Position numbers and translations under genes: made by a program. From assembly GCA_038328375.1 (NCBI GenBank), contig JBBQLX010000011.1, positions 1,283 to 65,282 on the forward strand: a stretch of 64,000 nucleotides of DNA, written 5' to 3'. Under the pieces are notes generated by a model. The model did not search any database. It was not told where the DNA came from and was given only the letters and a program-made list of their open reading frames with translations. This document shows, piece after piece, positions 1 through 11,594 of the stretch. Source of the DNA: Aggregatilineales bacterium. GTDB taxonomy: Bacteria; Chloroflexota; Anaerolineae; Aggregatilineales; Phototrophicaceae. How positions within the stretch are numbered: the stretch's first letter is position 1; each line of letters starts with the position of its first letter.

Positions 1-792
1 GTAACCCAGCAAGTTGGTCAGCACAAACCATGAATGGCTGCTGCGTTCACCGATGCGGCAGTAAGCCACAATGTCATCAGTCGGCTTCAAACCCTGTTCG
101 CCTTCGTAGATGGCCTTGAGTTCTGCCGCTGTCTTGAAAGTCCCGTCTTCGGCATTCACAGCCTTGGCCCACGGGACACTCTTTGCGCCGGGGATATGAC
201 CGCCTCGTAGAGCGCCTTCTTGGGGGTAATTGGGCATATGAGTCAGCTTGCCACTGTATTCATCGGGGCTGCGGACATCGACCAAGGGCAGACCAGCTTC
301 AATATGCTTCAATACTTGGTCGCGGAAGGCACGGATTTCGCTGTCGTTGCGTTCGGGCGCGGTGTATTGTGTCGCGGGATTGCTCGGTACTTCTTTGGTC
401 AGCTCGCGGCCTTCTTTTTCCCACTTCAAACGACCACCATCGACAATCTTGGCGTTGGTGTGACCAAACAGTCTGAACACCCAATAGGCATAGGTTGCCC
501 ACCAGTTGTTCTTGTCGCCGTAAAATACCAAGGTCGTGTCGGTGGTGATACCAATGCGCGAGGCCAGTTTTTCAAAGCCTTCACGGTTCAGATAATCACG
601 GCGTACTTGGTCGTTGAGGTCATTGGTCCAATCGACCTGCACTGCACCGGGGATGTGTCCCGATGGATAAAGCAGCGGGTCTTCGTTGGACTCAATGATA
701 CGGATGTTAGCATCCTTTAGGTGTTCCGCTAACCACTCGGTTGAAACCAGTACATCGGGGTTGGAATAACCACGGCTTGCAATGTCACTCAT
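1..792 (-). CDS. sseA: Two-domain rhodanese / thiosulfate-3-mercaptopyruvate sulfurtransferase (SseA/CysA family), 3' end runs off the window
   Basis: Absent from ORF track; manual translation [21 protein letters not shown]...[11 protein letters not shown]...[12 protein letters not shown]...VDVRSPDEY...GGHIPGA...[13 protein letters not shown]; RBS AGGAG upstream of ATG 792. Confidence 0.92.
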
Positions 793-870: not shown

Positions 871-903
871 CAAACAAAAAGCCGACCTGCGTAGGTCGGC
901 TTT
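871..903 (-). terminator. Intrinsic terminator, candidate attenuator terminator
   Basis: Perfect 11-bp inverted repeat 878-888/893-903 (AAAGCCGACCT-acgc-AGGTCGGCTTT), followed on the minus strand by TTGTTT. Confidence 0.85.
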
Positions 904-940
904 GGTTGTGCTTAGCCAGATGATTTCTCGCTGAACAACT

Positions 941-1033
941 TTACCCACTCGGACGCAGACGTGCGTATTTCTGTGTACAACACATACACATGGGACAACA
1001 CATCATTACCGGGTAGAGATTAAACTTGTTCAT
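941..1033 (-). CDS. Putative leaderless Cys/Met-rich leader peptide (30 aa, MNKFNLYPVMMCCPMCMCCTQKYARLRPSG)
   Basis: ATG 7 nt downstream of the -10 hexamer, no SD; 5 TGT Cys codons within codons 12-19; lies between a promoter and a terminator upstream of the sulfurtransferase. Confidence 0.75.
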   Translation of the reverse strand: MNKFNLYPVMMCCPMCMCCTQKYARLRPSG

Positions 1034-1040
1034 GGGTTAG

Positions 1041-1069
1041 AATATAGCGGAGGAGCATGATAATGTCAA
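1041..1069 (-). promoter_or_regulatory. Near-consensus sigma70 promoter TTGACA-N17-TATATT driving the leader peptide
   Basis: -35 at 1069-1064, -10 at 1046-1041, exactly 17 nt apart; overlaps the rarA start codon. Confidence 0.75.
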
Positions 1070-2277
1070 CAACCACCCAAGCCCAACCGCTTGCCGACCG
1101 TGTACGCCCAAAATCGCTCGATCAGTTCATCGGGCAGAAACATCTGGTCGGGAAGGGCAAGCCGCTTTATCTCGCCATTACCCAGAACCGTGTTTACTCG
1201 ATGATTTTCTGGGGGCCGCCGGGTGTTGGGAAAACCACACTCGCCCGTATTATTGCGACGGCGACCAACCGTCCATATTTCGAACTGTCGGCAGTGTCGG
1301 CGGGCAAAGCCGAAATCCGTGCGATTGTCGAGCAGGTGAAAGCCGCTGATAAGAAGGATTTGTTTTCGCAGGTCGAAGGCAAACAAAATGGCAGTGCCGT
1401 ACTTTTTTTGGATGAAATTCACCGCTTCAACAAAGCCCAGCAAGATTTCCTGCTGCCGTATATGGAAGATGGCACACTGATTCTGATCGGCGCGACCACT
1501 GAGAATCCCAGCTTTGAGGTGAATTCGGCAGTGCTGTCGCGCAGTCGAGTCTTTGTCCTTGAAGCGCTGACGGTCGATGAAACTAAAGAGATCATCCAAC
1601 AAGGCGCAACCGAACTTGGGATTACCATTGAGCCGGATGCCGAATCGTTCCTTGCAGAGTTTGCCAACGGTGATGCGCGACAGTCGCTCAACCTGCTGGA
1701 AGTCACCGTCGAACTTTACGCCCAAGAATCCAAAATCGTCACGCTGGATAACCTCAAGAATGCCTTGCAATCCAAGTTCCTGCGCTACGACAAAGGGGCG
1801 GAAGAACACTACGACACCATCAGTGCCTTCATCAAGAGTATGCGGGCGAGTAATGTGGATGCCGCGCTTTATTATCTGGCACGGATGGTCAACGGTGGTG
1901 AAGACCCCAAGTTTATTGCCCGTCGCATCGTGATCTTCGCCAGCGAGGATATTGGCAACGCGCAGCCGACCGCATTGGTGGTGGCGAATGAAGTTTTCCG
2001 CGCTGTGGAAACGATTGGCTTGCCGGAGTGTCAGTTCAATCTGGCGCAGGGCGTGGCTTATATGGCGATGGCTCCCAAAGACCGGACTTCCGGTGATGCT
2101 TACTTCGCCGCTCTGGAAGATGTTAAATCGCAGGGCAACCTTCCGATTCCGCTGAACCTCCGCAACGCGCCCACCAAGCTGATGAAAGAACTCGGTTACG
2201 GCAAAGGCTACGAAATGTATTCGACCGATGATTTGCTGCCCGAAGCGCTCAAAGGTCAGAAGTATTATAAGAAGTAG
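1063..2277 (+). CDS. rarA: Replication-associated recombination protein A (AAA+ ATPase, RarA/MgsA)
   Basis: PLADRVRP, Walker A GPPGVGKTT, LFLDEIHRFNKAQQD, IGATTENP, SEDIGNA motifs; RBS GGAGGAG favours ATG 1063. Confidence 0.95.
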   Translation: MSTTTQAQPLADRVRPKSLDQFIGQKHLVGKGKPLYLAITQNRVYSMIFWGPPGVGKTTLARIIATATNRPYFELSAVSAGKAEIRAIVEQVKAADKKDLFSQVEGKQNGSAVLFLDEIHRFNKAQQDFLLPYMEDGTLILIGATTENPSFEVNSAVLSRSRVFVLEALTVDETKEIIQQGATELGITIEPDAESFLAEFANGDARQSLNLLEVTVELYAQESKIVTLDNLKNALQSKFLRYDKGAEEHYDTISAFIKSMRASNVDAALYYLARMVNGGEDPKFIARRIVIFASEDIGNAQPTALVVANEVFRAVETIGLPECQFNLAQGVAYMAMAPKDRTSGDAYFAALEDVKSQGNLPIPLNLRNAPTKLMKELGYGKGYEMYSTDDLLPEALKGQKYYKK

Positions 2278-3880: not shown

Positions 3881-4777
3881 TTAGTAGCCCAGCTTCTTGA
3901 GGTAATCACGGTTGCGGCGGGCGCTGCGACGGGGCGCGTCGAGGTCATCGGTCAGCACATCTTGCTCGACAATCGCCCATCCGTCGTATCCCAACGATTC
4001 CATGTGAGACAATATACTGGGGAAGTCCACATTGCCTTTGCCGAGTTCGCAGAAGACTCCAGCTTGTGTGGCCTCACGGTAATTGAGTTTTTCTTTGATG
4101 CACAACTCGCGGATATTGGGGTCACAGTCCTTGAGGTGCAGATAGCGCACCCGTTCGCCGTAAGTTTTGACGGCTTCCAAGGCATCGCCACCCGCGTATT
4201 GATAATGTCCTGTGTCCAAGCACAGCCCGACCAAATCAGAATCGGTGCGATCCATCAACTGACGAGTTTCTTCAGGGGTTTCAACATAACCGGCGCAGTG
4301 ATGGTGGAACATGATCTTCAAGCCATATTCATCAAATACACGGCGGGCAATGCGGTTCACGCCTGCCGCGAACACATCCCATTGGGCAGGTGTGAGAGCT
4401 GACCCTTTACGTCGCCCCGCCTGTGCGAAGAGTTCTGGAACGCTGCCGTTATCATCCGCTAGAACGATGACTTTTGCGCCGCAGGCCGCCAGCAACTTGC
4501 CCACCTGCAAGGCATGTGCCTCGCCTTCGGCATGGGCGTTGGCATCCACCAGTTTGACAGGCACATAGGACGAGAGCAGTTGCAAGCCCCGCTTATCGAG
4601 TTCCGGTTGCAGCACGGCGGGATCCGTGGGCAAGTAACCCCAAGGGCCTAGCTCAATACCTGTGTAACCTGTGTCGACGATTTCATCCAATACCCGTTCA
4701 TACGGATATTTGGGTTCAATATCTTTAAATTCATAAATGCCCCAGCTCACCGGAGCGTTCCCCATGCGAATAGTCAT
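3881..4777 (-). CDS. iolE: Sugar-phosphate isomerase TIM barrel, myo-inosose-2 dehydratase (IolE/MocC)-like
   Basis: GNAPVSWG, HHHCAGYVET, LCLDTGH, YLHLKD, FCELGKG, IVEQD motifs. Confidence 0.8.
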   Translation of the reverse strand: MTIRMGNAPVSWGIYEFKDIEPKYPYERVLDEIVDTGYTGIELGPWGYLPTDPAVLQPELDKRGLQLLSSYVPVKLVDANAHAEGEAHALQVGKLLAACGAKVIVLADDNGSVPELFAQAGRRKGSALTPAQWDVFAAGVNRIARRVFDEYGLKIMFHHHCAGYVETPEETRQLMDRTDSDLVGLCLDTGHYQYAGGDALEAVKTYGERVRYLHLKDCDPNIRELCIKEKLNYREATQAGVFCELGKGNVDFPSILSHMESLGYDGWAIVEQDVLTDDLDAPRRSARRNRDYLKKLGY

Positions 4778-10730: not shown

Positions 10731-11594
10731 TTAATCCCGCTCGATCAGGTAACGCGTCAACCACAGCACCAGTCCCATAATGAGGATCGGTAAGCCCAGC
10801 GGCAGCACAAAATCGACTGTGAAGCGCATCGGCCAACTCATCGGAACGAGTCGAACCAGATTGAGACATAAAAAGTAAAACCCACCAACAATTAACGTTC
10901 CGGTTGTTCCTGCTGATCGTGTTCGTAACGCCGTACCCATCAGAATGCCGATCATGGCGACCATAAATGGTTCCAGCAGCATCCTTATAATCGACACGCC
11001 CAGCCCCAGCACGATTGCCACCCGCGACAGTACCGGATTCTGGTCAAGCGGCCACAGCGTCCCATAATACGAAATGAGTAAAGGCGTACTCAGCAGCGCG
11101 ACACCCAACATCAGCAAGCCCAAATCCTCGACCTGTCGCCACATCGCGGCAGCAGCCTTACTCGCAATAATATCTCTTAAAGAGTAAGGAGTTGTACGCA
11201 GCACAGTTAAGGTGTCGTTCTGCAACTCGTCGGTCATCGAGCGCGCACCGGCACTGCTGACGATCACCAGTACCCGCGCGTAAACAACAACTGCAAAGGG
11301 CAGCAGGATGATAGCGGCTGTCACGGTTGGCAGCGCGAGTTCAATCAGAAAGGGGAAGGGCAGCGTGAGAGCAATCAAAATCGCTTGGACAATGAATGCT
11401 TGCCGCAAGAAACCCACTTCGGGCAGCATCGTTCGCCATGCCATACCCAACTGGCGACGCACCAATGGGTTAGATCGCCGCGCCCAGTACGGAAGCCCCG
11501 TGTCAATATCCTTGCCACGCTGGATTATCCGAATGAGTTGAAGTTCACTGCTGGTGTGTTCCACCGTGACCTCGTATGATTGATTTCTAATCAT
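10731..11594 (-). CDS. ABC-2-type permease-like membrane protein
   Basis: About 6 TM helices; DELQNDTLTVLRTTP...IIASK pattern. Confidence 0.6.
   Translation of the reverse strand: MIRNQSYEVTVEHTSSELQLIRIIQRGKDIDTGLPYWARRSNPLVRRQLGMAWRTMLPEVGFLRQAFIVQAILIALTLPFPFLIELALPTVTAAIILLPFAVVVYARVLVIVSSAGARSMTDELQNDTLTVLRTTPYSLRDIIASKAAAAMWRQVEDLGLLMLGVALLSTPLLISYYGTLWPLDQNPVLSRVAIVLGLGVSIIRMLLEPFMVAMIGILMGTALRTRSAGTTGTLIVGGFYFLCLNLVRLVPMSWPMRFTVDFVLPLGLPILIMGLVLWLTRYLIERD

Follow-up and report, generated by a model that had tools for sequence, protein, structure and literature searches.

A putative leaderless Cys/Met-rich leader peptide with a predicted terminator/antiterminator switch upstream of a rhodanese-SufE operon in an uncultured Aggregatilineales bacterium (Chloroflexota)

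The DNA stretch analysed here (64,000 nucleotides (nt), hereafter the window) corresponds to positions 1283-65282 of contig C11 in the 6.3-Mb metagenome-assembled genome (MAG) of an Aggregatilineales bacterium, and carries close to its start, on the minus strand, a short open reading frame (sORF) rich in cysteine and methionine codons, located between a divergent rarA/mgsA gene and a rhodanese gene. This locus raises the question whether the sORF, together with the promoter that precedes it and the intrinsic terminator that follows it, controls transcription of the rhodanese gene. The first-pass annotation of the sequence had proposed a trp-style switch, in which a ribosome on the stop codon masks an antiterminator and a ribosome stalled on the Cys codons frees it. 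In silico, the proposal is supported by conservation, covariation, folding under a ribosome mask and recurrence of the design in front of cysH, and we regard it as probable that the element is a ribosome-mediated transcription attenuator which senses cysteine, possibly methionine, and controls read-through from its promoter, P1, into a rhodanese-SufE operon.

The element begins with P1, a promoter-like site with the -35 hexamer TTGACA (1064-1069, minus strand) and the -10 hexamer TATATT (1041-1046) on either side of a 17-nt spacer. P1 matches 11 of the 12 consensus positions and was the top promoter-like site of the region in a promoter scan, which found five such sites there against 0.9 expected from shuffled sequences. 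The ATG of the sORF, at 1033, lies 7 nt 3′ of the P1 -10 box, leaving no space for a Shine-Dalgarno sequence. The sORF (941-1033; 30 codons plus UAA; MNKFNLYPVMMCCPMCMCCTQKYARLRPSG) is thus putatively leaderless, the A of its ATG being the presumed transcription start, and it has no Pfam match. Its codons 10-19 (977-1006) read M M C C P M C M C C and form the putative sensor tract, with four AUG Met codons (10, 11, 15 and 17) and five Cys codons (12, 13, 16, 18 and 19), every one of them TGT in the DNA, so arranged as to give two CC pairs. The sORF is followed by an intrinsic terminator (871-903), in which an 11-bp stem (903-878; arms AAAGCCGACCU and AGGUCGGCUUU, loop ACGC) with a hairpin energy of -17.2 kcal/mol precedes UUGUUUG; the hairpin sequence occurs a single time in its own genome. 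The fold of the whole leader is more stable than that of its shuffles (z = -4.75), and an Rfam search of positions 600-1300 on both strands returned sub-threshold chance matches only, none at E < 0.001. About 85 nt and a further promoter separate the leader from the rhodanese start codon, in front of which stands the Shine-Dalgarno sequence AGAGGAG (802-808). Promoter, ATG, sORF, Cys and Met counts, terminator and the rhodanese ATG at 792 were each found on the minus strand where the first-pass annotation had placed them.

A predicted antiterminator connects the sORF to the terminator. Its 5′ strand, region 2 (942-960, GUCUGCGUCCGAGUGGGUA), runs through the final six codons up to the second base of the stop codon, and its 3′ strand (885-901, AGCCGACCUACGCAGGU) extends from the upper 5′ arm of the terminator through the loop to the fourth nt of the 3′ arm. 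RNAduplex joined the two (960-942 with 901-885) by 13 pairs at -16.1 kcal/mol, in agreement with an earlier estimate of 8 contiguous pairs plus about 6 more. The partner had then been described as the 5′ arm and loop of the terminator; by RNAduplex this is right for the upper 5′ arm and the loop, to which the first bases of the 3′ arm have to be added. A further part of the sORF, region 1 (998-1032, at its 5′ end), is predicted by both the minimum free energy and the centroid folds to pair with region 2 in untranslated RNA, and would serve as an anti-antiterminator.

In order to see how far this arrangement is kept, the orthologous rhodanese loci of 60 related genomes and the 80 best loci of a species-level genome collection were compared. 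A poly-Cys sORF stands upstream of the rhodanese gene at 22 of the 30 closest orthologue loci, and in addition in genome G009. The module extends over about 22 of the 31 genomes of the genus and over two other genera of the family (loci L021 and L022), and at the approximately 75 orthologue loci from other orders and phyla no short ORF with at least four Cys was found. What is kept is a whole chain of features, namely a -35 box, a 17-nt spacer, a -10 box, 7 nt, the ATG, a poly-Cys sORF of 27-35 codons and a terminator 22-42 nt past the stop codon. A TTGACA-like -35 box with a 17-nt spacer is present in 22 loci, the -10 box is TATATT or TATAGT, and the distance from the -10 box to the ATG is exactly 7 nt in 21 of the 22 leaders (8 nt in L022), with a spacer sequence that varies. 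The peptides themselves have diverged (MNRMNLYSGMTCCRMCCACC..., MNRMNLYSGMTCCRMCCACCTC..., MSSFHLSSCACCCMACC..., MMTMPLYPPAVCCPTCCC..., MMTSLLHPACVCCAMCCSCFCC..., MLMTSSSPMCCACCCACM...). They keep the Cys cluster, often interleaved with Met; the arrangement of Cys and Met is not kept across the orthologues, whereas their density is.

The two stems of the predicted switch are kept along with the sORF. The terminator has the conserved form GCCGACC...GGUCGGC and was the sole consensus helix found by RNAalifold in a MAFFT alignment of the 22 leaders, with compensatory changes at three pairs. In such an alignment the diverged parts of the ORF align poorly, and the antiterminator was therefore counted explicitly and checked sequence by sequence with RNAduplex. 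In nearly all lineages the final 4-31 nt of the ORF contain a motif (G)YCUGCG. Its partner, CGCAGG(U), is at the terminator top, in the loop and the beginning of the 3′ arm, and the pairing extends into the upper 5′ arm. Over the 22 leaders (alignment A1), the eight named antiterminator pairs are formed in 86.4% of the cells, compared with 26-44% when the partner is slid by 1-3 columns, and three antiterminator pairs are changed on both sides. Compensatory changes are seen in L011, where CUGUG faces CACAG, and in L021, where ACCUAGACGG faces CCGUCUAGGU (z = -6, equalled by 0 of 300 shuffles). In the window the motif is read as CGU CUG CGU (Arg-Leu-Arg), and in L019, L020 and L025 as GCG CCU GCG (Ala-Pro-Ala). 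Being kept in different reading frames, the motif points to a constraint on the RNA and not on the peptide. Cys-codon sORFs with covarying terminator and antiterminator stems, which had been named as what to look for in orthologous leaders, were thus recovered at 22 of 30 loci, with covariation in both stems.

The behaviour of the predicted switch was then followed by folding, with the nascent RNA cut after the first four bases of the 3′ arm and all RNA masked as far as the ribosome's front edge. A ribosome placed on the first or on the last Cys codon leaves the terminator top paired upstream with P = 0.5-0.84 in 21 of the 22 leaders; in L019 the mask of a ribosome on the last Cys codon covers region 2 (P = 0.00), and L014 reaches 0.30 with the ribosome at the middle Cys. 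With the ribosome at the stop codon, P falls to 0.00-0.34, with a single exception of 0.57. When the intervening RNA was replaced by dinucleotide shuffles, the corresponding values were about 0.35 for the stalled and about 0.25 for the stop-codon position, and the natural difference between the two positions was matched by a median of about 3% of the shuffles. For the leader in the window, P is 0.76 under a stall and 0.00 with the ribosome on the stop codon; without a ribosome it is as low as 0.08, because region 2 is then engaged by region 1. Masking nt 1-69 leaves a difference of just 0.4 kcal/mol between the terminator state, at -30.9 kcal/mol, and the antiterminator state when enforced, at -30.5 kcal/mol. 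The core helices between regions 1 and 2 are kept in close relatives, with hardly any variation. In this folding of the nascent RNA the leaders behave as proposed, a stall freeing the antiterminator and a ribosome on the stop codon masking it, to an extent well above that of the shuffled controls.

The mechanism that we propose is as follows. P1 would start the RNA at or beside the A of the sORF AUG, and a 70S ribosome would load at the 5′ end. As long as Cys-tRNA is plentiful, the ribosome would reach the UAA and cover region 2 (960-942), so that the terminator (903-878) could form and the polymerase would stop in the U-tract near 871. With Cys-tRNA scarce, it would be the tract MMCCPMCMCC (1006-977) in which the ribosome stalls, and region 2, lying about 16 nt past the last Cys codon, would stay free; it could then pair with the emerging upper 5′ arm, loop and first 3′-arm bases, block nucleation of the terminator and allow read-through into the rhodanese and sufE-like genes. 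Without translation, region 1 is expected to pair with region 2 and the terminator to form. Sequence features, conservation, covariation and predicted alternative folds support this scheme, and from them we infer the transcription start, the translation of the sORF, the stalling and the dependence on cysteine.

The gene behind the terminator (1-792, minus strand) encodes a two-domain rhodanese of the thiosulfate sulfurtransferase type, 289 amino acids (aa) long, with two PF00581 domains and the active-site loop CRIGERS, and extends 87 nt past the start of the window. It is a homologue of the CysA/SseA thiosulfate sulfurtransferases of mycobacteria. It matches solved thiosulfate sulfurtransferase structures (8k55, 1uar, 3p3a, 3hzu SseA, 3hwi and 3aax) with E = 1e-92 to 1e-119; 3p3a, 3hzu SseA, 3hwi and 3aax (E = 1e-92 to 1e-108) we take to be mycobacterial. 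On the same strand, 132 nt downstream of the rhodanese gene and outside the window, lies a gene for a SufE-like protein (PF02657, 150 aa; L001/G000:C11:620-1072), which suggests that the two genes form a sulfur-relay operon. In one relative the rhodanese orthologue (G016:C9:2274192-2274982) is matched as two overlapping pieces, residues 1-152 and 145-264, which suggests a frameshift or a pseudogene.

Could the juxtaposition of a Cys-rich ORF and a terminator be fortuitous? In this genome, Cys accounts for 0.67% and Met for 2.2% of codon usage. A six-frame scan of the 6.3-Mb genome yielded 572 short ORFs with at least four Cys in a 10-residue window, only 10 of which have a terminator after them, and a stricter scan (at least three Cys with a CC pair, intergenic, with a terminator) left eight matches genome-wide. 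Three of these matches are clear poly-Cys leaders, namely the rhodanese leader and two that precede cysH; other hits of the genome-wide scans fall in coding regions or are without relevant context. The arrangement of poly-Cys sORF and terminator is beyond chance. One other candidate in the genome is of doubtful status: on the minus strand of contig C95 (reverse-complement coordinates 3942-4034), a short ORF (MFATVLKPQMCPICCLQSDQSLWRVAALSC) with a strong terminator behind it is found some 450 nt ahead of the gene encoding a LivK-like periplasmic amino-acid-binding protein; the ORF has fewer Cys and no clear leaderless geometry.

The two other leaders of the genome stand in tandem at locus L131 (C78:11190-11575, plus strand), where a consensus promoter is followed by two poly-Cys/Met leaders, MSFTCCPMCCMCNPVTTTVL (11256-11318) and MMKRLNGLMCCLCMCMNTTKLSSPLQRA (11415-11501), each with its own intrinsic terminator. 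The genes after them are those for 3′-phosphoadenosine 5′-phosphosulfate/adenosine 5′-phosphosulfate (PAPS/APS) reductase (cysH), APS kinase, sulfate adenylyltransferase and a sulfate-binding protein, all named by characteristic sequence motifs in the translated ORFs and not by family search. Each leader has, at the end of its ORF, a stretch that can pair with its own terminator top (duplex z = -2.3 and -3.2), and the folding described above gave 0.68 stalled against 0.14 at the stop codon for the first leader and 0.54 against 0.01 for the second. Of the 12 same-genus genomes with a cysH gene, 11 have tandem poly-Cys/Met leaders and their terminators before it, as has one genome of another family; over 20 cysH leaders the means were 0.55 stalled and 0.07 at the stop codon, compared with 0.31 and 0.18 in shuffles.

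Two traits are shared by the three leaders of this genome. Met is interleaved with Cys in all of them, and all 14 of their Cys codons are UGU, a codon that makes up 48% of the Cys codons genome-wide, which gives a probability of about 3e-5 by codon usage alone. The only tRNA-Cys anticodon found in the genome is GCA, so every UGU sensor codon would be read by G:U wobble. Taking the loci together, we lean slightly towards the view that they form a genus-wide Cys/Met ribulon in uncultured Aggregatilineales, in which unrelated leaders with UGU-only Cys codons and Met, coupled to intrinsic termination, would co-regulate sulfate assimilation (tandem leaders before cysH, cysC and sat) and rhodanese-SufE trafficking. 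Such a ribulon would be an independent, transcriptional counterpart of the mycobacterial Cys ribulon that has converged on a CysA2-type target, and its UGU and Met codons would tune its sensitivity to the supply of sulfur amino acids. Outside the family but within the order, L120 (G059:C4) has a short ORF with Cys (…VCDCPCPDRACPAW…) and after it a terminator, which lies about 45 nt ahead of the start codon of the rhodanese gene; this may be a variant of the design that arose independently.

Expression of the rhodanese gene probably does not depend on P1 alone. A probable second rhodanese promoter, P2 (825-853, minus strand), with TTGTCC (853-848) and TATGAT (830-825) separated by 17 nt and a 9/12 consensus match, sits between the terminator and the rhodanese gene, where it probably gives a basal expression independent of the attenuator. 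The P2 block (ATTGyC-N17-TATkAT) is kept at most orthologue loci, including L015, L018, L024, L026 and L028, which have no sORF and where the block must be the promoter. It is absent from L019, L020, L022 and L025. In these four loci the terminator lies 41-50 nt before the rhodanese ATG, and without P2 read-through is the only route to expression there. In distant relatives a conserved motif of the 5′ untranslated region, CATCTGTTTAATT, follows the P2 block.

On its other side, P1 adjoins the rarA/mgsA gene (1057-2277, plus strand), which is divergent from the leader. The -35 hexamer of P1 lies inside the first rarA codons, overlapping codons 3-4, and the reverse complement of the P1 spacer holds the rarA Shine-Dalgarno sequence (GGAGGAGC). 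Within 1038-1069 the two strands carry back-to-back promoters, the -10 box of P1 (1046-1041, minus strand) overlapping a promoter-like TAGAAT on the plus strand (1038-1043), which could serve rarA. P1 is kept also in L009 and L019, where it lies outside rarA, so that its conservation is not accounted for by the rarA codons that it shares in the window.

Several observations weigh against the attenuator as proposed. Many of the compared loci are closely related, and the z-scores of single antiterminator duplexes are modest, mostly between -1 and -3. The helix between regions 1 and 2 is without support from covariation and is not predicted in L009, L011, L016, L019 and L021. A rhodanese is non-canonical as an enzyme of cysteine biosynthesis, and with P2 lying downstream of the terminator in the window its gene need not depend on P1. 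The public RNA sequencing runs with any match to the locus are two metatranscriptomes, in which fragments of relatives' conserved coding sequence are matched at 90-95% identity and nothing of the leader, a result that is neutral on expression; the other public runs matching the locus are DNA metagenomes, including sediment samples. Across its own genome, -10 boxes are not enriched 7 nt before the ATG of long ORFs. The fixed 7-nt spacing would hence be specific to this element, and it is on the spacing kept at this one locus that we base the view that the sORF is leaderless, with transcription from the A of its ATG. Finally, in equilibrium folds of the full-length RNA that mask a 30-nt footprint only, the terminator persists in 20 of the 22 leaders (P about 0.95), so that the antiterminator must win kinetically, or else region 1 must be covered by queued ribosomes. 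Attenuators are usually decided kinetically, and retention of the terminator at equilibrium is usual for them. As regards P2, it is most likely that the attenuator in the window adds a cysteine-dependent component to P2-driven expression and is not the sole control.

Among the other explanations, the one that survives best is that P1, the sORF and its terminator are a stand-alone unit, encoding a functional Cys/Met-rich micropeptide (e.g., metal- or sulfur-binding) or a small RNA of about 165 nt, while the rhodanese gene is transcribed from P2 only. The unit has indeed a strong promoter and a strong terminator of its own, the conserved P2 lies downstream of it, and an N-terminal N/L-L-Y-P motif is partly conserved among the peptides. 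Outside the Cys cluster, however, the peptide varies greatly in length and content, and no modification or export genes are found nearby. A peptide gene would also have no need of a 3′ motif that is kept as RNA in different reading frames and covaries with the terminator loop, and this explanation fits poorly with the four relatives in which P2 is missing and the terminator abuts the rhodanese gene, as well as with the same design before cysH. We consider it unlikely.

It could also be that the leader is an attenuator which senses something other than Cys-tRNA, either by arrest of the nascent peptide, triggered by a metal, oxidant or sulfur compound, or with the Met codons as the main sensor. 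Met stands among the Cys in most orthologues as in the three leaders of this genome, and the use of UGU for 14 of 14 Cys codons hints at a tuning of decoding. A specific arrest peptide would nevertheless be expected to keep its arrangement, and it is only the density of Cys and Met that is kept, which fits the counting of codons better; the target operons, devoted to sulfur assimilation and trafficking, in turn fit the sensing of sulfur amino acids. A signal other than Cys-tRNA appears distinctly unlikely to us.

An attenuation at the level of translation, as in mycobacteria, with the rhodanese ribosome-binding site sequestered, or one that depends on Rho, would make the hairpin incidental. 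It has in its favour that the closest poly-Cys leaderless sORF characterised experimentally works translationally (bioRxiv 10.1101/834739). Against this, no pairing between the leader and the rhodanese Shine-Dalgarno sequence is predicted in the read-through RNA, the leader is separated from the start codon by the distance and the promoter given above, and a canonical hairpin with a U-tract is kept in 22 of 22 leaders; we find this explanation highly improbable. As to the possibility that a GT-rich stretch, a promoter-like site and a terminator stand together by chance and have no function, the Cys tract does double as a (TG)-rich low-complexity stretch, but its maintenance in frame in relatives, also through UGC codons, the 7-nt spacing in 21 of 22 leaders, the covarying pairing, the recurrence at cysH and the absence of such an ORF at 75 unrelated orthologue loci (0/75) make it very unlikely in the light of the comparative data, and the least credible of the explanations considered. 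The possibility that the sORF is the precursor of a ribosomally synthesized and post-translationally modified peptide was considered as well and dropped, no modification or transport genes being present nearby.

The preferred reading, a transcription attenuator responding to Cys-tRNA, has well-known precedents. The trpL leader of E. coli, the hisL leader of Salmonella and the leu, thr, ilv and pheA leaders are classical transcription attenuators of the kind described by the Yanofsky model. These leader-peptide attenuators of amino-acid operons have been summarised (bioRxiv 10.1101/834739). The element in the window resembles the trpL/hisL type in its short ORF rich in the regulating codons, its intrinsic terminator, its predicted, mutually exclusive antiterminator masked by a ribosome on the stop codon, and the pairing of regions 1 and 2 predicted for the untranslated RNA. 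It differs in that the amino acid is cysteine, with Met interleaved, and in that the sORF is apparently leaderless, with no Shine-Dalgarno sequence and the AUG at a predicted +1. Further differences are that the antiterminator targets the top of the hairpin, that a second promoter lies past the terminator, that the target is a rhodanese-SufE pair and not a biosynthetic operon, and that the host belongs to the phylum Chloroflexota.

For cysteine, the closest parallel is found in mycobacteria, where leaderless poly-Cys sORFs (Ms5788A/Rv0815A, the 'Cys ribulon') attenuate cysteine operons, one of which includes cysA2 in M. smegmatis (Canestrari et al., 2020, Mol Microbiol; bioRxiv 10.1101/834739). 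Attenuation for cysteine mediated by an upstream ORF (uORF) was stated there to be previously undescribed (Canestrari et al.; bioRxiv 10.1101/834739). Both systems have a leaderless geometry (predicted in the Chloroflexota case), consecutive Cys codons and several leaders per genome at sulfur or cysteine loci, and in both a thiosulfate sulfurtransferase of the CysA2 type belongs to the controlled operon. Control in Ms5788A is translational: its poly-Cys tract base-pairs with the Shine-Dalgarno sequence of the gene that follows, and there is no terminator (bioRxiv 10.1101/834739). The leaders described here, unlike Ms5788A, have a conserved intrinsic terminator and antiterminator and no predicted sequestration of the Shine-Dalgarno sequence. 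The mycobacterial and the Chloroflexota sORFs are non-homologous, and their likeness is a case of convergence in another phylum.

Cysteine leaders with or without terminators have been predicted elsewhere. Upstream of cysS in Rhodobacterales, a Cys-Cys uORF motif has been predicted, uORFC-8-2, behind which stand an intrinsic terminator stem and a run of U (Brewer et al., 2021, PMC8632094). Like the element in the window, it would act by ribosome-mediated attenuation and combines tandem Cys codons in the uORF with a terminator after them. It differs in having two Cys codons, mostly UGC, in its cysS target, in its occurrence in Alphaproteobacteria and in not being described as leaderless, and it has no sequence relation to the leaders studied here. 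The resemblance is one of design only, and it means that a mechanism combining a Cys uORF with a terminator is not unprecedented. Cys leader peptides have also been predicted upstream of cys and cbs operons in Actinobacteria, where no terminators were found and dependence on Rho was suggested (Seliverstov et al., 2005, PMC1262725). Like the present leaders they are short ORFs in which Cys codons stand in runs, placed before sulfur or cysteine genes, and they lack the canonical terminator and antiterminator conserved here. Our literature search found no paper describing such an element in Chloroflexota. The principle is a textbook one; used here for cysteine and in an apparently leaderless sORF, it would be new for Chloroflexota and for a rhodanese-SufE target.

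Cysteine was for long without a classical attenuator, and the one characterised case, in mycobacteria, acts on translation. The rhodanese and cysH leaders suggest that an uncultured lineage of Chloroflexota has a cysteine-responsive regulon built from leader peptides and intrinsic terminators, which has reached by convergence the same sulfurtransferase target as in mycobacteria. The element offers a compact part for the study of leaderless translation coupled to termination, and a functional annotation for short ORFs that stand unannotated in MAGs. For the organisms themselves, the placing of such a leader before these genes suggests that the rhodanese-SufE pair is needed under cysteine scarcity.

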